A stretch of DNA of 53,914 nucleotides from a virus (Duplodnaviria > Caudoviricetes): positions 1-53,914 of IMG/VR virus record IMGVR_UViG_3300036791_001299; one strand, written 5' to 3'. The position numbers and the translations under genes are program-made. The notes under the pieces were generated by a model. That model was not told the DNA's origin. It saw only the letters and a list, made by a program, of their open reading frames with translations, and did no database searches. This document shows positions 4,934 to 51,479 of this stretch, in pieces. Every line of letters starts with the position of its first letter. Position 1 is the stretch's first letter.

Positions 4934-5389
4934 TTAAAATTGCTCAGTAGGTTTCAATGCCTGCTCAGCGGCTTGGTAGCTGAGACTGGTAGCTGAGACC
5001 AGAGCCATGCGCATAGCGATGGTCATGGCCAGACATTGCTCCACGTTTAAATTCCACTGCCGCACCATAATCTCGACGCGGCCATCGCGCACGTAGAGAG
5101 TGGCGGGAATCCAGGTCATGCCTTCCATCGGCGGTTGCGAGCAGAAGAATTCGATGCGCGTCAATTTGCCGTTCTGCGTCTCCGTAGGCTCGATACGGCA
5201 GAGCACCCGCTTCGCGTCTTTCAACTCGGTCTCGTGCTGCCGGTCGAGGTCGAAGGCGTCGATTACCGAATGGCATTGCTCGCACACCGCGTAGTCCTGA
5301 GAGCTGGGACCCGTTTCAGAGTCGTAGTCGAGGCGTGTCAGCATGCGGAATTCGGACGGCTGGCCGCAGGACGGGCAATTGAGTGTCAT
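4934..5389 (-). CDS. Hypothetical zinc-ribbon protein; C-terminus encoded by a CRISPR repeat copy
   Basis: CPSCG...CEQC; 3' end overlaps the solitary repeat. Confidence 0.6.
   Translation of the reverse strand: MTLNCPSCGQPSEFRMLTRLDYDSETGPSSQDYAVCEQCHSVIDAFDLDRQHETELKDAKRVLCRIEPTETQNGKLTRIEFFCSQPPMEGMTWIPATLYVRDGRVEIMVRQWNLNVEQCLAMTIAMRMALVSATSLSYQAAEQALKPTEQF
4951..4999 (+). repeat. Solitary CRISPR repeat plus 13-nt tandem duplication of its 3' end
   Basis: GTTTCAATGCCTGCTCAGCGGCTTGGTAGCTGAGAC (4951-4986) then TGGTAGCTGAGAC; 4 mismatches to the array consensus. Confidence 0.9.
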
Positions 5390-36148: not shown

Positions 36149-38206
36149 TTACCGGCGGCGGAATCCGCCCCGCTGCGCGCCCAGACCCGGGTAGGCTGGC
36201 TGCGCAGTCACCGGTGCCGTCCAGGCGGCTTGAGTGGGCTGTGGCACCGGTGCCGGACGTGGCGGCGCTGCGCCTTCGATGGCAATAGCCGCCTCGAAAT
36301 GACGCCAGTGGTCTTCCCCAAACCGGTCCGCGCCCACAATCGAATAGGCCGCCCGGTTGTACACCGCGAGATCGATGGGCTCATTGCGCGGCGCGCGCTT
36401 CTCGTAGACGACGTCGCCGTTGGGCTTGACGATCTTCACCTCGGAGCATAAGCCTTCGAAGTACGTCATGTCATACATCGGCCAGTGATAACAACCGGTC
36501 ACCGGCGTATCGTCCACCGTAGGCACCGCGTGCCGCATCAAATCAAACAATTCAGCCTTGCAGCAGTTCACCCCGACACCCACAATGCGCGTCCCCTGCC
36601 GCTTGCGCGCCGCATCTTCCTTCGAAATGCTGGCAATGACCCGCAGCTGGTCCGGCGTACCCTTGATAGGCACCACCGTGCGCGCCGCGATCAACTTAAT
36701 ACCTTGCGGTCCGTAATGCAGCTGATGCCCCCGCCGCGTAAACTCGTATACCGGCTTCGGGTTTTTGCCGGTGTCGATGGTCATGCAAAGGATCGGCAGA
36801 CTCTTACCCGAGTTGTGCGCCCACTCGCGTCCCAATAACTCATACAGCTGGTCCCACAATTCCCGCGCGCTCACCGGCAACTCCTGGCCATTCTCGCTGA
36901 ACGCTTGCAGCACCCAGTAGCCCATCGACCAGTTTTCGCGGTTTCTACCCCAGGCCTTCACTTCAACCTCGAGACGCGCCGGATGCTCCTGGACGTCAAC
37001 CGCCGCCGTCAGGAACAGACCCCGCTGCGGCACCACCGCAGTATCCCCGAACGGATAAGCCTCCCGCCGCGCAAACAACAGATCCTTCTCCGGCGCTTCG
37101 CCTTCTTCCACCCATTCCTCGGCGAGCACCGTATTGATAAACGTTTTGAGACTCTGCCGGTCGTCTTTGGCATTCAGAAACTGCTGCGAAATGGACGCCG
37201 CCGACTTCCAGCTCGGTGGCACATACAAGTGGTTCAGCCAGAATCCAGCCGTGCGATTGCCCGCCTGCGGACGATCCGCGCGCCACTCGACATAGTGATC
37301 CACCGCATCCCAGCGCTCCCGCTCCGTCCACGGCTTATCGCAACTGATGCAGTAATAGCGCGCCGTCGCCGCCTGCAGCTCCCGCGCCACGGCGGTAGAC
37401 CACTTGACGTGATACCCGTCCCGGTCGCGGAATCGCAACACCTGCATGGTGCCGCAATGCGGACACGGCACGTAGGGGCGCCGCTGGTCGGACAACGCAA
37501 ATGCCCTGCCGATCCGGCTGCGCCCGGCCACCGTCGGACTGCACGCCAGGATACGCTTGCGGCGCGTCCCGAAGGTCATGGCGCGTTCCCACGCAAGGTC
37601 GATAGGATCACCTTCTCCCTGACGCTCCTGGCTGCCGCCGACATCCTGGTCGTACTTGTCGATCTCATCGCACACCAGATACCGGATGGTGTGCTGCGCC
37701 AGATCCACCGGCGTGCGCGCACTGATGATCAGCAGGTTGCCGCCCGGGAAGGTCTTGCTCTGGATGGTATTCGAGCCATCGTGGATGCCGTCCAGCACCT
37801 TATTGCGCAGGATCTGGCAATCCCGCACCATGGGCATCAACCGGCGCTTCGAGAAATCGCGCGCGGCGTCTTTTTTGGGCTCGACCAATAAGATGGGCCC
37901 CGGCTCCTCGGCGATCCAATACGCAATCGCCAGCATGATCGCGAGACTCTTGATCACCTGGGTGGACGACATGATCACCACGGTCTCGATGGTGTCGTCC
38001 GTTATGGCGTCGAGAATGCCCCGCTGCCAGCCGTACAACCGCAAGGGACCGGTCGACGAGCTGTACTCCGGCGACAGCACCACGTTGGCTTCCGACCATT
38101 GCGAAAGCGGCACCCGGGGACGCACCCGGAAGATCTCAGAGTGCAAGCTCTGAAATACCGGCGGCGGCCAGTCCCAGCCTGGAACTAAGAAAGATGGCGT
38201 TTCCAT
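36149..38206 (-). CDS. terL: Terminase large subunit (lambda gpA family)
   Basis: variant Walker A SSTQVIKS, LVCDEIDKY, CSPT, CPHCG, AAVDVQ, IDTG, RNEPIDL. Confidence 0.95.
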   Translation of the reverse strand: METPSFLVPGWDWPPPVFQSLHSEIFRVRPRVPLSQWSEANVVLSPEYSSSTGPLRLYGWQRGILDAITDDTIETVVIMSSTQVIKSLAIMLAIAYWIAEEPGPILLVEPKKDAARDFSKRRLMPMVRDCQILRNKVLDGIHDGSNTIQSKTFPGGNLLIISARTPVDLAQHTIRYLVCDEIDKYDQDVGGSQERQGEGDPIDLAWERAMTFGTRRKRILACSPTVAGRSRIGRAFALSDQRRPYVPCPHCGTMQVLRFRDRDGYHVKWSTAVARELQAATARYYCISCDKPWTERERWDAVDHYVEWRADRPQAGNRTAGFWLNHLYVPPSWKSAASISQQFLNAKDDRQSLKTFINTVLAEEWVEEGEAPEKDLLFARREAYPFGDTAVVPQRGLFLTAAVDVQEHPARLEVEVKAWGRNRENWSMGYWVLQAFSENGQELPVSARELWDQLYELLGREWAHNSGKSLPILCMTIDTGKNPKPVYEFTRRGHQLHYGPQGIKLIAARTVVPIKGTPDQLRVIASISKEDAARKRQGTRIVGVGVNCCKAELFDLMRHAVPTVDDTPVTGCYHWPMYDMTYFEGLCSEVKIVKPNGDVVYEKRAPRNEPIDLAVYNRAAYSIVGADRFGEDHWRHFEAAIAIEGAAPPRPAPVPQPTQAAWTAPVTAQPAYPGLGAQRGGFRRR

Positions 38207-38351
38207 TTACCACGCGCCTTATTGGCTCTGCCAAACTTCGGATCCAATGCCCGCCGCATGTCAATCGCCTCGCGCAGCCGACGCCAATACTCACACCACG
38301 CCCGAAACGCTGAGGCCGACATCTCTGGCATCTGTAAACCCATATTTTAAA

Positions 38352-38618
38352 GTCTCACCTATCAAGCCGGTGAACAGGCATTGCGTAGCTTTTCTCCATA
38401 ATAATTTCTCCGTAGGTCTCACCAACCAAGCCGGTGAACAGGCATTGCGACTTTAGTGCATGATAGTCTCAGTTACCAGGCCACCAAGCAGGCATTGCGT
38501 CTCCCTCATCCTCGTCCCGGCTACCAAAGCCGCCGAGCAGGCATTGCTTGGTTCCGGCCCCATCTCGACTAGAGCCTTCTGCGTTTCAGCTACCAAGCCG
38601 CTGAACAGGCATTGTGGA
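38352..38618 (-). CRISPR. Distal array segment: 5 variant repeats
   Basis: Repeats at 38352, 38416, 38466, 38514, 38583; spacers about 28, 14, 12, 32 nt. Confidence 0.8.
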
Positions 38619-39263
38619 CTCCTCGGCAATCGCGCGCTGCGCCAATACTAACAGGTCCACGCTGTCAGGCAGCGCCGCGGCCCGTACTGCCACATATGCT
38701 GCCTCCGCCACCCTCCTCATTACCGTAATCTCTATTTGCTGGCACGCCGCGCAGGCCGCACACGTGGCGCACCACGCTGCTTTGGCCGCTCCCCTTGCCT
38801 CCTTCGAGCGATGCTGAACTGCCCGGACTGATGCCGCCATCCCGGCTGCGACTGCCTTTTCGTGAGAACGATCCGTACCGTTTAGCCACCCATACGCCCA
38901 GCCCACAAAGGACGGATCGCGGTCCACCGCCATCGCGCACATAACCGCAAACCGCACCCTCGCGCTTGCCGCAACCTCCGGCATCTCGATGCGCCGGATG
39001 GTGGTCAGCGACCTACACCCACACTTGAGTTGTCCGTCACGCAGTCCTATTTCGCCCTCAGCCTCCCAGAGCAGTATGTTTCGGGGATCAACGTATATTG
39101 CCGGGATCAATAAAGCCGCCAGGAGCGGATGCTCGTGAGCATGTATCCACCCGTCCGTAAAAAGCTCCTTGCCGGTGCCGGTCGCGGCGTGGGTGACATT
39201 CTCCCCCCACTCGATCCCGTCTCCCGACTGGTCATTGGCGTCAGCCACTTTATAGAGGGTCAT
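38586..39263 (-). CDS. Phage hypothetical protein embedded in the CRISPR array
   Basis: 225 aa, AAGG RBS, flanked by repeats on both sides; stop codon lies inside a repeat. Confidence 0.75.
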   Translation of the reverse strand: MTLYKVADANDQSGDGIEWGENVTHAATGTGKELFTDGWIHAHEHPLLAALLIPAIYVDPRNILLWEAEGEIGLRDGQLKCGCRSLTTIRRIEMPEVAASARVRFAVMCAMAVDRDPSFVGWAYGWLNGTDRSHEKAVAAGMAASVRAVQHRSKEARGAAKAAWCATCAACAACQQIEITVMRRVAEAAYVAVRAAALPDSVDLLVLAQRAIAEESTMPVQRLGS

Positions 39264-39325
39264 TTGGTTTTTACCTTACCTTTCCGGGTAGACTAATGCG
39301 CACGGGCTTACTGTGCTCGGCGCTG

Positions 39326-39362
39326 GTCGGCAATGCCTGTTCAGTGGCTTGGTTACTGAGGC
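39326..39362 (+). repeat. Inverted CRISPR repeat copy
   Basis: GTCGGCAATGCCTGTTCAGTGGCTTGGTTACTGAGGC, opposite orientation to the array. Confidence 0.85.
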
Positions 39363-39380
39363 CGTCAACACACATCGCGC

Positions 39381-41379
39381 GTCCCGGCTACCAAGCCGCC
39401 GGGCAGGCACCTCGGATTACTTCACGGATGTCTCAGCTACTAGGCCGCCGAGCAGGCGTTGCGACAGACCATAAGATCTTCGCGTCACACCAACTAAGCC
39501 GGTGAACAGGCATTGCAACGCGGAATGCGACGTGCGTTGGCGTCCACCCGAAGAGTCGCGTCTCAGCTACCAAGCCGCTGAGCAGGCACCGCGACTATCG
39601 CTAAAGGCTAATGTCCCAGCTACCAAGCCGCTGAACAGGCGTTGCAACGCAGCTTGCTGACCCAGATCAAGACCTCCAGATCCATCCCGTCTCAGTAACT
39701 AAGCCACCGAGCAGGCGTTGCGACCCCATGTCTCTATCAACGGACGTCACGACAAACAAGTCTCAGCTACCAAGCCGCTGAACAGGCGTTGCGACGCACG
39801 GCGGCGGCGATCCGCACCAGGAAGTCCACGTCTCAGCTACCAAGCCACCGAGCAGGCGTTGCGACACCACGAAAGGATCGGGAGCAATGACGTCTCAGTA
39901 ACCAAGCCACTGAGCAGGCGTTGCGACGGAGGGTGGCGTGATCGCTCATGAAACCAGTATGCGCTGTCTCAGCTACCAAGCCACTGAGCAGGCGTTGCGA
40001 CGCTGCATCCTTCGGTTGTTCCCATCGCACCTGCCACGTCTCAGCTACCAAGCCACTGAGCAGGCGTTGCGACGATTTAAACCCTGGTATATGCTCATGC
40101 ATAATAGTCGGGTCTCAGCTACCAAGCCACTGAGCAGGCGTTGCGACTGCCAGCCATTTTTCGAGCGCCGCCGTTGGGACGCGTCTCAGCTACCAAGCCA
40201 CTGAGCAGGCGTTGCGACGATTTAAACCCTGGTATATGCTCATGCATAATAGTCGGGTCTCAGCTACCAAGCCACTGAGCAGGCGTTGCGACGCTGTTAA
40301 AGTAGCGCGGTGCCGTTTGTGCGGTTAGTTGTCTCAGTAACCAAGCCACTGAGCAGGCGTTGCGACCACGTCGACAGATCTCTTTCACGGCGATGACGTC
40401 CTGTCTCAGCTACCAAGCCACTGAGCAGGCGTTGCGACGGGGTCGAGTATGACGCCGATATTCAGCCTCGAGCCGTTGTCTCAGCTACCAAGCCACTGAG
40501 CAGGCGTTGCGACGTTCGAAAACTGGCCGGAGATCGCCACCACTGACCCTGTCTCAGCTACCAAGCCACTGAGCAGGCGTTGCGACAGGAGCCGCCCTTG
40601 CAGGCGGATGATCTGGCGCTTGTCTCAGCTACCAAGCCACTGAGCAGGCGTTGCGACACTGCGATCCGGTGCGACCGGCGGGTATCAGCAGTAGTCTCAG
40701 CTACCAAGCCACTGAGCAGGCGTTGCGACGTTGTATTTCGGACAATACTATCCGTTGGAATTTGTTGTCTCAGCTACCAAGCCACTGAGCAGGCGTTGCG
40801 ACATCCGTGGTCCGCGTACTGCGGGTGCCGACATCGTCGTCTCAGCTACCAAGCCACTGAGCAGGCGTTGCGACGTCCAGGTCAAAATCATCAAGCACGG
40901 ACGGTTTAGCGTCTCAGCTACCAAGCCACTGAGCAGGCGTTGCGACCTAAACCCCGGAAAAAGTTCGAAGCACCCTACCCTGTCTCAGCTACCAAGCCAC
41001 TGAGCAGGCGTTGCGACGCGGTGACATCGCCGAGCGCCGCGCCCCAGATGTAGAGTCTCAGCTACCAAGCCACTGAGCAGGCGTTGCGACACGGAAACTG
41101 GTCGGGCTGGAGGAAATCGAGCAGTAGGGGTCTCAGCTACCAAGCCACTGAGCAGGCGTTGCGACCGCGGTCCGGCCTCCGGTCTCCTCTTTCTCGGAGC
41201 GTCTCAGCTACCAAGCCACTGAGCAGGCGTTGCGACAACCCGGACCTGCTCGCTCGATACCGGAACCGTCTTGTCTCAGCTACCAAGCCACTGAGCAGGC
41301 GTTGCGACCATTCGGCAGGGGTAGATACCCCCCAACTACCTACGTCTCAGCTACCAAGCCACTGAGCAGGCGTTGCGAC
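39381..41379 (-). CRISPR. CRISPR array, 29 repeats of 36 nt (21 near-identical, 8 variant)
   Basis: Minus-strand repeat GTCGCAACGCCTGCTCAGTGGCTTGGTAGCTGAGAC; mostly 34-40 nt spacers; divergence increases away from the cas gene. Confidence 0.98.
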
Positions 41380-41382
41380 AGC

Positions 41383-43191
41383 CTAGTCGCCAGCTGCCAT
41401 GTTTTCATCAGGTTCCAGACCGGTTTGCGAGCGGTCTGGTTTTGCGCCCTCTTCCACCTCCGTAACTCGTTGTTTCTTATCAGATGCCACCTCTGGCATC
41501 GCCCCACCGCTCGCACGCATCTGCCCCCACGCCTTCAACAGATTCTTCGCCGCATTCAAATCCTGGTCCCACAACATCCCGCACCCACCGCACCGGTGCA
41601 TGATACTCGCCGCTTGATCCCACTCATGCGCATACCCGCACGCATGGCACTCCCGCGTCGTATACGGCGCAGGCAGCTCAACCACCGCCACCCCTTCCCG
41701 GCTGCACGCACTCTTAATCGCCAGCCGCAACGTCCCCGTACTGGCCATAAACCGGTACGTCCCCGACCCCGTGACAACCGCCGCCGACTCCGGCTGAGGA
41801 TGCTCCACCACCGAGCGCAAATCAAATTCCTCCACCACCACCACGTCATAATCCCGCGCCAGCCCTGCCGCGAAATCCCGATACCGCGCCAGCCTCCGGC
41901 CCGTCATCTGATGCTGCAGATTCCGCCACCAGTCCGTCAAATGCAGAAACTGCTTGCGCCACCGGACCGCCTCCGCAAACATTCCCTCATCACCCGGCAG
42001 CCGGTTATCCGCCCACCAGCGGATCAACGCCGCCACACGTTCCCCGGACCGCCACTGATACAGATACGCCGACCGCGTCCGCCACTCCTCCGCCAACTCC
42101 CGCTGGCCCAGCCACTCCACTAGCTCCGGGTGAAACTGCTCCCGGCTCTTATCGCAGATCGACCGCAGATCCGCGACCTTCTGGAACTGCGCGATATCGG
42201 AGCCCTCAATCCGCAATTCACCATGGCCGCCCAGCGAGTCAGCCCAGTATCCCACCCGCACCGCGCCCTCCGGCTTCAATCGCCAGCCCAGATCGAGCGC
42301 CAATACCCGGCTGCCGGTCTTCTCACTAGGCCGCGGCAAGCTGATGCTCACATTCAGCTGCCAGTGCGTCTTCCCCGCCAGGATGCGGCGGCTGGCGCTT
42401 ACACTCTTGATACGCGCCTCCGGAGGCAGATCCCGATGGTAAACAATCGGAATCTCAACCCACACCGGCGACCGATCCGCATTGCTGCCGATCCGCACGC
42501 GCGCATACCGCCACTTCCGGCCCGGCGTCGGTGGATCCACCTGGAACAGCGTGTTGGTGCCGCCTACGCAGTCGCTGACGCACGCGCCACCCTGCACCTG
42601 CGCGGTAACCGTCCCTTCGCCGCGGAAGCCGTGATAACGCAGCTCGCTATCCCCCTTGCCCTTGCGCGCCAGCTGACGCGCCGTCTCCGCCCGCTGAATG
42701 ATGTCGTTATAGGAGCCCCAATAGAGCCCCAGACCCGCCGCCGCTTGCCGCGCCTTAATCGTGCGCCGGTACGCCCGCTCCGTATTGGCATCCAGCTGCT
42801 GCCGCTTGGCCTCATGCCGCGATTCCTTGGTCGCCTTCCGCTCCGCGATCAACGGCTTTCGCTCCGCCTCCGCCGCCGCAATGCGCTCCGGCAGATCACC
42901 AAGATCCGCGCCCTTGCGTTTACGCGCGGACTGGCGAGCCTTCTTGATCAACTCCCGGCACAAACTGATCTCCGCCGACAGCTCATCGATCCGCGTTTGC
43001 TGGTCATCCCGCATGATCCGCCGGTACGCCGTATCGCGCGTACGCTCGATGGTGACCAGGACATTCCATAGCCGGTTGCCCAGCCGCATCTGTCCTCGAG
43101 CCGAATCTTCATTGATCACCGGTGCGATCCGCGCCGGTACCGTGCCATAGGAGTACACCCGGCTGGCTGTATCGTCTGTTTTACGCTGCAT
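41383..43191 (-). CDS. cas12m: Type V CRISPR effector, Cas12m-like (V-M/V-U1, TnpB-derived), ~602 aa
   Basis: LYWGSYN, LRYHGFRGEGTVTAQVQ, PIVYHRDLP, RuvC-I ALDLGWR, RuvC-II VVVEE, TTRECHACG...CGGCG zinc finger, RuvC-III DQDLNAAKNL; abuts the array. Confidence 0.85.
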   Translation of the reverse strand: MQRKTDDTASRVYSYGTVPARIAPVINEDSARGQMRLGNRLWNVLVTIERTRDTAYRRIMRDDQQTRIDELSAEISLCRELIKKARQSARKRKGADLGDLPERIAAAEAERKPLIAERKATKESRHEAKRQQLDANTERAYRRTIKARQAAAGLGLYWGSYNDIIQRAETARQLARKGKGDSELRYHGFRGEGTVTAQVQGGACVSDCVGGTNTLFQVDPPTPGRKWRYARVRIGSNADRSPVWVEIPIVYHRDLPPEARIKSVSASRRILAGKTHWQLNVSISLPRPSEKTGSRVLALDLGWRLKPEGAVRVGYWADSLGGHGELRIEGSDIAQFQKVADLRSICDKSREQFHPELVEWLGQRELAEEWRTRSAYLYQWRSGERVAALIRWWADNRLPGDEGMFAEAVRWRKQFLHLTDWWRNLQHQMTGRRLARYRDFAAGLARDYDVVVVEEFDLRSVVEHPQPESAAVVTGSGTYRFMASTGTLRLAIKSACSREGVAVVELPAPYTTRECHACGYAHEWDQAASIMHRCGGCGMLWDQDLNAAKNLLKAWGQMRASGGAMPEVASDKKQRVTEVEEGAKPDRSQTGLEPDENMAAGD

Positions 43192-43198
43192 GCTTAAA

Positions 43199-43228
43199 AT
43201 TGTATTTAAAGGTGGGCCAAATTGCGAA
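43199..43228 (-). promoter_or_regulatory. Candidate leaderless promoter for cas12m (TTCGCA-N18-TACAAT-N7-ATG)
   Basis: No SD before ATG 43191; -10 box 7 nt upstream. Confidence 0.5.
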
Positions 43229-43250
43229 AACAACGGCGGGTGGTTTTGTT

Positions 43251-43709
43251 TTATCGTCGCGGCTCGAAAACGATAACCTGGACGGACTCCATCGAGCCAA
43301 GCGCCTGCTCTATTTCCGGACGCACATCACCCCAGCTCAGCCCGCCATTGCCGCATCCCAGCGCAGGTATTGCTAGGGACCGAATATTTTCCTCTTCAAT
43401 CACACGGCGAAGATCCCGCAGTCCGTCGACAATCCATTTCAGCTGGGAGGGATGCCGCCAGTGCTCCTTCGTGGGAAAGTTGATCACCCACTGCGGACCG
43501 TGAAGGTCGTTGGTCTTCGTAACAAACATGCGCCCGATTCTGACTTCATTGCGGTTGCACGCTAATACGTAGGCGCGATAATTCTTCGGATAAGCATATC
43601 TGAATTTGAACGCAATCCCCGCGCCCATCGTGCCGACCGTGTTCACGGTATTGACCAGCGCTTCCACTGGCTCTCTCAAGAGATCCCCGTCTACCCGAAA
43701 TGTGATCAT
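43251..43709 (-). CDS. DarG-like macrodomain (ADP-ribosyl hydrolase)
   Basis: GDLL...ALVNTVNTVGTMGAGIA..F, INFPTKEHWR, SLAIPALGCGNGGLSW. Confidence 0.88.
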   Translation of the reverse strand: MITFRVDGDLLREPVEALVNTVNTVGTMGAGIAFKFRYAYPKNYRAYVLACNRNEVRIGRMFVTKTNDLHGPQWVINFPTKEHWRHPSQLKWIVDGLRDLRRVIEEENIRSLAIPALGCGNGGLSWGDVRPEIEQALGSMESVQVIVFEPRR

Positions 43710-44248
43710 GCCACCTTCTGTGCGTCGAGATCGGCGTTGAGTATCCGGTTAATGTTTTCCCACTTCGCCAGTACCCGCAGCATGGCGGCCTCCAGGACAG
43801 CGCGGATCTTCAGCGGCTCGGTCTCGGACGCCAGCGAGTCAGCCAGCTCGGAAGGCAGCCTCAGCAATTCATCGCGCCCATCGACCAGGAACTTTGCCGC
43901 CCACCGCGACACATAGCCGACCGGCAACAATTCCCCGCGCCGCACCATATTCTCAATCTCTTGCTTCTCGGCGAGCGCCCTCGCCCGGCGCAGCTTCGCG
44001 GACTCCAGCGCATCGGTACGCTCCGCCGCCGCGATCACCATCTCGTATTCCGAGCGCGGAGTCTCTTTCTCCGCCACCGCCTTCTCCGGAATAGGTGGCA
44101 CCGGCGTTGTACCATGCCGCTGCGCCGCAAACGCACGTATCTGCTCGACCGTCTTGCCCGCCCGCATCATATTCGATACCGTCTTGGGCGGCAGATTCAC
44201 ATCGCGCGCGAGCGAATTAACGCCTACATAGGTGACCCGTTGCATCAT
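43706..44248 (-). CDS. terS: Terminase small subunit (Nu1-like)
   Basis: N-terminal HTH; AKLRRARALAEKQEIENMVRRGELLP coiled coil typical of Nu1. Confidence 0.75.
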   Translation of the reverse strand: MMQRVTYVGVNSLARDVNLPPKTVSNMMRAGKTVEQIRAFAAQRHGTTPVPPIPEKAVAEKETPRSEYEMVIAAAERTDALESAKLRRARALAEKQEIENMVRRGELLPVGYVSRWAAKFLVDGRDELLRLPSELADSLASETEPLKIRAVLEAAMLRVLAKWENINRILNADLDAQKVA

Positions 44249-49318: not shown

Positions 49319-49354
49319 GTCTTAATGCCCGTTCAGTGGCTTGGTAGCTGAGAC
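49319..49354 (+). repeat. Solitary CRISPR repeat
   Basis: GTCTTAATGCCCGTTCAGTGGCTTGGTAGCTGAGAC; last 22 nt identical to the array consensus. Confidence 0.9.
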
Positions 49355-51064: not shown

Positions 51065-51479
51065 TTAGTGAATCTCCTTTTTGATTGGTGGTAAGCTCAT
51101 GCGAATCTAATGCCCGTCCGGCGGCCTTTGTAGTCGGGGCGACCAGGACATAGTGTGGTTTGCCCAGCCGTTTCATCTGGTAAATCATATTGCGTGTGCC
51201 GGGTGATTTGCCGTCCCAGATAGCGACCAGACCTTCTGCGGCTGCGGCCATCTCCGCGTTGCGAATAGGGCCCGCAGCTTTACCGTGCTTGGTCCAATTG
51301 GCGGGATATCGTTCAATTGGAATATGCTTCGCCTTCGCCCATTGCGCGCCTAAGTGGTCGATGCCGTCCGGCGCGCAGCCACTGATGACTGCGGTGACGT
51401 TGAAACCAGAGCGCTCGACAGCTATTCCGATGAGCGAGTAATCGGTAATGGAGCGGCTGCCCGCAATGATGACTTTCAT
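51039..51479 (-). CDS. SLOG family (DUF2493/YspA-like) protein
   Basis: MKVIIAGSR, VISGCA.DG.D, ANW..HGKAAGPIRN.EM, WDGKSPGT. Confidence 0.85.
   Translation of the reverse strand: MKVIIAGSRSITDYSLIGIAVERSGFNVTAVISGCAPDGIDHLGAQWAKAKHIPIERYPANWTKHGKAAGPIRNAEMAAAAEGLVAIWDGKSPGTRNMIYQMKRLGKPHYVLVAPTTKAAGRALDSHELTTNQKGDSLNGRNANST

Follow-up and report, generated by a model that had tools for sequence, protein, structure and literature searches.

Diverged Repeats in the cas-Distal Tail of a Phage-Borne Cas12m CRISPR Array Keep Their Handle Pairing

A Type V-M Locus in a Virus Record

The virus record IMGVR_UViG_3300036791_001299 of IMG/VR (Duplodnaviria; Caudoviricetes) is a linear sequence of 53,914 bases with a completeness estimate of 76%; we analyzed it over its whole length and refer to it as the window. 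It carries a type V-M CRISPR locus, which consists of a cas12m gene and, on the same strand, an array at 38352–41379 whose first repeat ends 3 nt past the cas12m stop codon. Both a distance scan and a covariance-model search place 34 repeat units on the minus strand. In the cas-proximal part, 19 of the 21 repeats are identical, the other two (39892 and 40331) share one 2-nt variant, and the spacers are 35–39 nt long, except for a 26-nt spacer (39866–39891) after repeat 39892. The remainder, 38352–39865 (hereafter, the tail), contains 13 variant repeats with 12 distinct stems, plus an inverted repeat copy and a protein gene. All features are collected in Table 1. A first-pass annotation had called the tail repeats degenerate and had proposed that they keep the hairpin of the CRISPR RNA (crRNA) through compensatory changes.

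The cas12m product matches Protein Data Bank (PDB) entry 23vw, "Cas12m" (E 9.7e-89, residues 36–567), and Cas12m2 (PDB 8hhl; E 1.2e-23), and Pfam assigns it a Cas12f1-like_TNB domain. An identical protein (P0001, 100% identity) is publicly called at 568 aa and, given this call, the true start may lie further inside the longest open reading frame (ORF). The product is thus a Cas12m homolog in the range of ∼550–620 aa that marks type V-M effectors. Type V-M loci are often without cas1, cas2, and cas4; consistent with this as to the first two, Cas1 (PF01867) and Cas2 (PF09827) gave no match in the 76%-complete record, cas4 not being among the families searched. The array adjoins the gene and the 3′ part of its repeat corresponds to a two-helix pseudoknot handle, again as in type V-M systems. 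The title of the 23vw record is that of a DNA-binding protein. In the alignment to 23vw, the window's product has D, E, and D where 23vw has the same residues; these positions would be the RuvC catalytic motifs. Relatives with 50–57% identity occur on long contigs (P0002 and others), and a single-protein scan of the viral_contigs set gave no close relatives.

Tail Repeats Diverge in Sequence and Keep Their Pairing

In the minus-strand RNA, each repeat comprises a 5′ flank (positions 1–8), a GCC triplet (9–11), the dinucleotide UG, a first stem arm (14–19), a loop that opens with GGC (20–22), a second stem arm (29–34), and a terminal AC. The commonest stem, found at the younger end, is CTCAGT/GCTGAG. 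The variant stems that the first-pass annotation had named at repeats 38352, 38416, 39381, and 38514 are all present there as minus-strand RNA, and the GCC and loop GGC segments, which it had described as retained, are invariant in 19 of 19 aligned copies. This alignment contains 16 array rows and 3 solitary copies, of which 18 are distinct. In it, 99.4% of 162 stem cells are paired, and five of the six stem pairs have changed on both sides. None of 500 shuffles came up to the alignment in its fraction of paired cells or in covariation score, and controls with slid partners were 24–58% paired.

The same holds for the tail alone, where 77 of the 78 stem cells of the 13 repeats pair as minus-strand RNA. 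A simulation that keeps the number of stem transitions and transversions of each repeat yielded 60.8 ± 2.9 paired cells and reached 77 in 0 of 20,000 runs. The most conservative way to handle shared ancestry is to count each nonconsensus pair state a single time; 10 of 11 such states are then pairs (P = 0.006 if half of the changes are tolerated and P 1e-4 if one third are). The earlier argument that neutral decay would not give the paired changes is therefore upheld by both shuffles and simulations, and the covariation exceeds chance even under this conservative handling of ancestry. Neutrally decaying trailer repeats would be expected to take up substitutions that ignore RNA structure; the substitutions in the tail do not ignore it.

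The changes are also unevenly distributed. Compared with the consensus, the 13 tail repeats have changed at 39 of 156 stem cells and 26 of 104 cells of the 5′ flank, whereas none of the 130 cells in the pseudoknot arms (GCC and GGC), the UG linker, and the 3′ AC has changed (Fisher P ∼1e-10). Intermediates are visible for several pairs: C-G, U.G, and U-A for pair 14/34; U-A, U.G, and C-G for pair 15/33; and A-U, G.U, and G-C for pair 17/31. Pair 18/30 shows a double transversion from G-C to C-G, with the one-sided intermediate absent among the copies. The one-sided stem changes are all G.U on the minus-strand RNA and would be C.A mismatches on the opposite strand; the signal is therefore strand-specific and RNA-like. 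Because all variants keep the invariant positions, they resemble a single class that one protein serves, and a single Cas12/TnpB-type gene, cas12m, was detected in the 76%-complete record. Neither the several repeat classes nor the several effectors that had been suggested to account for the variants are supported by these observations.

The Fold Is That of Solved Cas12m crRNAs

The positions of both helices can be compared with experimentally determined scaffolds. Nucleotides −28 to −26 of the PmCas12m crRNA pair with −17 to −15, and −23 to −20 pair with −6 to −3 (bioRxiv 10.64898/2026.03.26.714355); in the Cas12m2 crRNA, −22 to −17 pair with −8 to −3 and the 5′ seven nucleotides are disordered (PMC10442227); and for GoCas12m a triplex is described together with a pseudoknot, its repeats being annotated with "stem I" and "stem II" (PMC11013384). 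Both window helices lie at the PmCas12m positions, and the long helix is that of Cas12m2 to within one loop base. Thus, the fold, including the pseudoknot that had been suspected from the GCC and GGC segments, is already known. The disordered 5′ end of the Cas12m2 crRNA fits the free-running 5′ flank seen in the window's repeats.

As the short helix is invariant within the window, it was tested across the family instead. It pairs three of three in register in 37 of 44 parsed family consensus repeats, compared with 0–8 in slid registers, and it occurs as GCC/GGC, CCC/GGG, GGC/GCC, ACC/GGU, CGC/GCG, and other variants. The GCC and GGC segments thus correspond to a real second helix that covaries across the family, in agreement with the solved PmCas12m and Cas12m2 crRNAs.

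The Pattern Recurs in Related Cas12m Arrays

Family units were set by anchors outside the stem (GCCYG, GGY, and RC). Across 338 units from 40 further distinct arrays, pairing holds in 1974 of 2009 stem cells, and in 112 of the 147 cells that differ from the commonest state of their own array. Counted as distinct nonreference pair states, 69 of 101 are paired (P 1.5e-4 at p = 0.5). Several arrays hold many stems: 14 occur among the 33 units of contig L157, 9 among the 27 of L117, and 7 among the 10 of L150. In L183 and L096, repeat states run block-wise along the array and include an A-U, G.U, G-C series. The near-identical pairs L123/L128, which differ by one unit and one base, and L124/L129, which differ only in the spacers held, offered no stem substitutions to polarize. 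Calling such repeats degenerate is a misnomer: the units have diverged, are structurally intact, and follow a pattern that is widespread in Cas12m arrays.

Compact units recur as well. Five short units (49–54 nt in core-register spacing), all in the tail, have unique spacers of 12, 13, 14, 17, and 18 nt. Start-to-start spacings in the relatives are bimodal, at 70–75 and 46–54 nt with few below 46, many of the short ones coming from L157. The short units are about the size of a mature crRNA, since the mature PmCas12m crRNA is reported as ∼33 + 17 nt, with an optimum of 17 nt (bioRxiv 10.64898/2026.03.26.714355), and the heteroduplex is reported as 17 bp.

Wherever arrays were found in related loci, they lie downstream of cas12m and on the same strand. 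On the metagenome contig L157 (2853–4535), cas12m is directly followed by 33 units placed 39–96 nt apart, mostly 44–50, without a conserved 5′ flank and compact throughout; ordinary CRISPR finders would be expected to miss this array.

The Tail Is the Old End of the Array

The farther a repeat lies from cas12m, the more it departs from the consensus (rho 0.80, P 4e-4), and a pair of related arrays has its distal spacers in common and different cas-proximal ends, which marks the tail as the old end. Most distal copies have T at position 8, where the younger ones have C. A plain record of successive leader-repeat states was considered and rejected: such a record requires 69 core changes along the array order, compared with 26 on a free tree, and 11,801 of 20,000 permuted orders were as short as or shorter than the real one. 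Thus, the array order is no better than permuted orders, and the overall gradient is all that agrees with such a record.

In a second assembly, a 16,424-nt contig from run X1, which encodes an identical Cas12m, matches 37900–39891 with 0 differences. The tail is therefore no assembly artifact, although X1 may be the source run of the window and the match is then an assembly check and not an independent sample. The shortening of the spacers must postdate their acquisition. No handle is broken among the remaining units, a count subject to survivorship bias, as units with a damaged handle would escape recognition. The longest exact run shared with any other repeat is 12–29 nt for the tail repeats versus 36 nt for the uniform ones. 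The resistance to recombinational loss that the first-pass annotation had proposed would be a possible by-product of this low homology, with no sign of selection for it; the 19 youngest repeats are identical.

Genes and Features around the Array

On the minus strand the order is small terminase, macro-domain gene, cas12m, array, and large terminase (36149–44248). Since the whole Cas12m locus sits between terminase genes on one strand, the array may be transcribed within the packaging operon. This setting is not shared, as five of five related phage records searched were without a gpA-type terminase. No minus-strand promoter-like site was found within the array or the tail, the single minus-strand site lying inside the start of the cas12m ORF, and terminator-like sites are as frequent as in shuffles.

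The product of the gene embedded in the tail has 121 homologs besides the window's own protein (best E 1e-43). Its match to Pfam DUF7666 is weak and below the cut-off (E 0.0012), and no PHROG match was obtained. The inverted copy is an antisense repeat in the minus-strand transcript and pairs with sense repeats in the minimum free energy (MFE) fold; an anti-repeat, a block to processing, and a rearrangement scar are candidate identities.

Table 1. Features of the Cas12m locus and further repeat copies in the window. A following spacer is the next one in the minus-strand RNA; single positions are repeat starts.
Feature	Position	Strand	Description
Large terminase gene (terL)	36149–38206	minus	gpA ATPase and nuclease domains, E ∼1e-62
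Tail part B	38352–38618	minus	5 variant repeats; intervening spacers 28, 14, 12, and 32 nt; 146 nt upstream of terL
Repeat	38352	minus	stem TTCACC/GGTGAG
Repeat	38416	minus	stem TTCACC/GGTGAG
Repeat	38466	minus	stem CTTGGT/ACTGAG
Repeat	38514	minus	stem CTCGGC/GCCGGG; 37-nt copy, one extra loop base
Repeat	38583	minus	stem TTCAGC/GCTGAA
Embedded gene	38586–39263	minus	225 aa, DUF7666-like; stop codon inside repeat 38583
Inverted repeat copy	39327–39362	plus	49.9 bits; faces repeat 39381 across 18 nt
Tail part A	39381–39865	minus	8 variant repeats, each a different stem; covariance model 47–61 bits
Repeat	39381	minus	stem CCCGGC/GCCGGG; following spacer 18 nt (to inverted copy)
Repeat	39430	minus	stem CTCGGC/GCTGAG; following spacer 13 nt
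Repeat	39484	minus	stem TTCACC/GGTGTG; following spacer 18 nt
Repeat	39560	minus	stem CTCAGC/GCTGAG; following spacer 40 nt
Repeat	39613	minus	stem TTCAGC/GCTGGG; following spacer 17 nt
Repeat	39689	minus	stem CTCGGT/ACTGAG; following spacer 40 nt
Repeat	39760	minus	stem TTCAGC/GCTGAG; following spacer 35 nt
Repeat	39830	minus	stem CTCGGT/GCTGAG; following spacer 34 nt
Young cas-proximal part	39892–41379	minus	21 repeats of 36 nt
cas12m	41383–43233	minus	longest ORF, 616 aa
Macro-domain gene	43251–43709	minus	
Small-terminase-like gene	43706–44248	minus	phrog_57
Solitary repeat	4951–4986	plus	perfect CTCAGC/GCTGAG stem; 4 mismatches to consensus; 58.1 bits
Solitary repeat	49319–49354	plus	stem TTCAGT/GCTGAG, two G.U pairs; 50.4 bits
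Solitary copy, weak and strongly diverged	51104–51140	plus	17.6 bits, rough E 0.003

Tail Units as Candidate crRNA Genes

These findings suggest that the tail units probably function as crRNA genes, or did so until recently, with purifying selection maintaining their recognition by Cas12m. The stretch would then be the old cas-distal end of a phage-carried type V-M (Cas12m) array, whose minus-strand transcript would include cas12m or begin directly after it. Every repeat would encode a crRNA handle of ∼28 nt gripped by Cas12m, in which a 3-bp helix (9–11 with 20–22) and a 6-bp helix (14–19 with 29–34) form the pseudoknot, followed by AC and the guide. The tail units would have diverged individually, while the need to be recognized, processed, or loaded by the one Cas12m would have selected against changes that break a helix and changes at GCCTG, GGC, and AC, and let G.U intermediates and compensations pass. 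Meanwhile, the tail spacers would have shortened toward the mature Cas12m crRNA size, and some reshuffling of units also occurred. As helices and invariant positions would be kept by selection, the units would be working guide-RNA genes, or would have been until recently, and not dead remnants. Such individual divergence under handle selection is the most economical account. What the data show directly is how well the stems pair, on which strand they do so, which positions never vary, that the helices match solved scaffolds, and that relatives have the same pattern. From these observations we infer selection on binding or processing by Cas12m, its action on the units at their present sites, and expression of the units.

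Several results weigh against this account. Identical derived stems occur at nonadjacent sites (38352 and 38416 with 39484, and 38514 with 39381), and therefore rearrangement, gene conversion, or import took part. In the 39380–39830 region, short X1 contigs join tail-type repeats to other spacers, with units skipped or reordered, at depths of 3.7–9.5 versus 18.7 for the main form, which points to mixing between co-occurring related arrays. Three tail spacers have only 12–14 unique nucleotides, below the 17-nt PmCas12m optimum; their guides may be poor, yet their handles keep the fold. Repeat 39484 contains the lone unpaired tail cell, a U.U mismatch. The hairpins do not stand out in MFE folds of the tail transcript: the fold of a 291-nt tail stretch is no better than that of shuffles (z +1.09), and that of a 571-nt stretch is dominated by pairing with the antisense copy. 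The family test weakens to 93 of 162 states paired (P 0.035) when looser anchors let in spurious units. Nor did targets emerge: blastn-short of the 34 spacers against the array-masked window and ∼190 loci returned only chance-level matches of 11–21 nt, apart from one self-match of the flank taken as the 38352 spacer, and the whole array gave one 26-nt match (E 0.9) in 50,697 phage records.

Alternatively, each variant may have been a functional repeat at its origin, with the compensation selected earlier, in a past leader-proximal repeat that was copied when a spacer was acquired, or elsewhere, in a sister array whose repeat arrived by recombination, the tail now being merely carried. We give this appreciably less credence than selection on the units in place, while noting that the age gradient, the change at position 8, the block-wise states in L183 and L096, the X1 contigs in which tail-type repeats adjoin different spacers and occur in a changed order, and the nonadjacent identical stems all agree with it. 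However, the array order adds nothing beyond the gradient, given the excess of changes along it and the equal performance of permuted orders, and 12 stems in 13 units would call for nearly as many donors or leader states. The contrast between the flank, 25% changed, and the unchanged invariant cells bears on timing: if flank changes arose after deposition, selection must have operated since. Likewise, the spacers were shortened after acquisition, yet no remaining handle is broken. A scan of viral_contigs with the variant cores returned two contigs, each with one solitary copy, and no donor array.

A role other than in guides is rather improbable. The repeats might direct Cas12m-dependent cutting or protection of a terS–cas12m–array–gene–terL transcript, titrate Cas12m as a sink, or act as an autoregulatory element. 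Such functions would suit a locus placed between terminase genes and entirely on the minus strand, a real protein gene within the array that ends inside a repeat, three spacers too short for good guides, the inverted and solitary copies elsewhere in the record, and the single units scattered over kilobases in L118 and L150. However, the terminase setting is absent from all five related phage records searched, the array and tail contain no minus-strand promoter-like site and only the shuffle frequency of terminator-like sites, and most tail spacers are still 17–40 nt long and guide-like. Finally, trailer-end repeat degeneration is common in CRISPR arrays and the changes are mostly transitions, one half of these producing G.U in one orientation or another, but a dead tail with coincidental pairing from transition-rich mutation is highly improbable in view of the matched simulations, the 10 of 11 distinct paired states, the double transversion without a one-sided intermediate, the 130 unchanged cells, and the same pattern in 40 other arrays.

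Selection on working handles, the account that we favor, can be extended further, although only as a tentative proposal that we consider unlikely to hold jointly in all its parts. The old part of the array would be a standing set of guide-RNA genes and not a fading immune memory, trimmed to mature size and kept individually; its copies would covary like paralogous structured RNAs, each unit being a 28-nt handle with ∼17–22 nt; and the long-lived guides would serve fixed targets, for example, host or rival-element genes to be silenced. The relatives of the protein that have been tested bind DNA without cutting it. In addition, because terL follows directly behind the handles and a protein gene is embedded among them, they may punctuate a packaging-operon transcript.

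Relation to Known Systems and Significance

The type V-M Cas12m systems (Cas12m2, GoCas12m, and PmCas12m) have the same 36-nt repeat, a handle 5′ of the guide, and an array beside the gene, as well as the same 3-bp helix, a long helix ending at −3, and a free repeat 5′ end. The published work describes a 17-bp heteroduplex and a single crRNA with no tracrRNA; in the window, the inverted repeat copy could pair with sense repeats in the transcript. That work presents one repeat per system; the window's array, in contrast, has 14 stems, compact units, and an embedded gene, is phage-borne, and lies between terminase genes. Thus, type V-M membership and the fold are already known, and the within-array compensation and the compact units appear to be new. 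Our literature search, which covered listings, abstracts, and text passages, found no description of either in Cas12m arrays. Phage-borne Cas12m itself is barely in print: apart from a mention of prophages in a 2024 review, there is a 2026 preprint that claims to describe the first case in a phage.

Ordinary leader-distal terminal repeats are thought to decay freely, with divergence growing from the leader. The tail shares the leader-distal place and the gradient with such degenerate terminal repeats, but its 13 successive units keep helices and invariant positions. Paired changes that keep a stem were also taken as evidence of folding by Kunin et al. 2007 (PMC1896005); their comparison was between arrays of different organisms, whereas here it is between copies within one array. 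Designed Cas12a arrays, a counterpart of the proposed resistance to recombination, likewise place stem-compensated variants with little homology along one array and keep crRNA activity (PMC11919711). They aim to limit lentiviral recombination, whereas the phage array is without sign that low homology is selected. Virus-borne mini-arrays and single units, as presented in a review (PMC11656645), are similarly phage-carried, lack an adaptation module, and have solitary copies in the same genome; however, they use or inhibit host Cas proteins, while this phage has its own effector and a 34-unit array.

If the favored account is true, CRISPR units stay selected long after acquisition and the "degenerate" ends of arrays need rereading; fixed, possibly regulatory targets of phage-borne Cas12m would also be indicated. 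The 14 natural stems, together with the invariant positions, amount to a free mutational map of the Cas12m handle, distinguishing bases that must stay from those that must only pair. This map is usable for low-homology multiplex arrays in Cas12m-based repressors, base editors, and epigenome editors, for which the Cas12a arrays provide a precedent (PMC11919711). Standard CRISPR finders may miss arrays of this kind, because the repeats are nonidentical and the spacers are 12–20 nt long, and the CRISPR content of phages may consequently be undercounted.

Solitary Repeats and Other Observations

The three solitary copies of Table 1 (4951, 49319, and 51104) are distant from the array, in the opposite orientation, and intact in the stem. 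The stem of copy 51104, assigned by eye, is TCCGGC/GTCGGG, with six of six pairs including two G.U. The 13 nt that follow copy 4951 repeat its own 3′ end, and the window offers no second site for the would-be guides of the four solitary copies, the inverted copy being counted among them. Solitary repeats also occur on the viral contigs L199 (654–689) and L200 (5511–5546), where an identical Cas12m-type repeat has the stem CTCGGC/GCCGAG; a second unit was not found in the stretch examined of either. On the viral contig L118 (1–4000), single units at spacings of 468, 1280, and 527 nt come after an array, and a 584-aa ORF, which could be a second cas12m-sized gene, starts just past one unit and ends just ahead of another. 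Contig L150, like L118, has single units scattered over kilobases. Within the young part of the window's array, a 38-nt spacer is present twice (40074–40111 and 40219–40256) as part of an exact 111-nt duplication, 40037–40147 being identical to 40182–40292.

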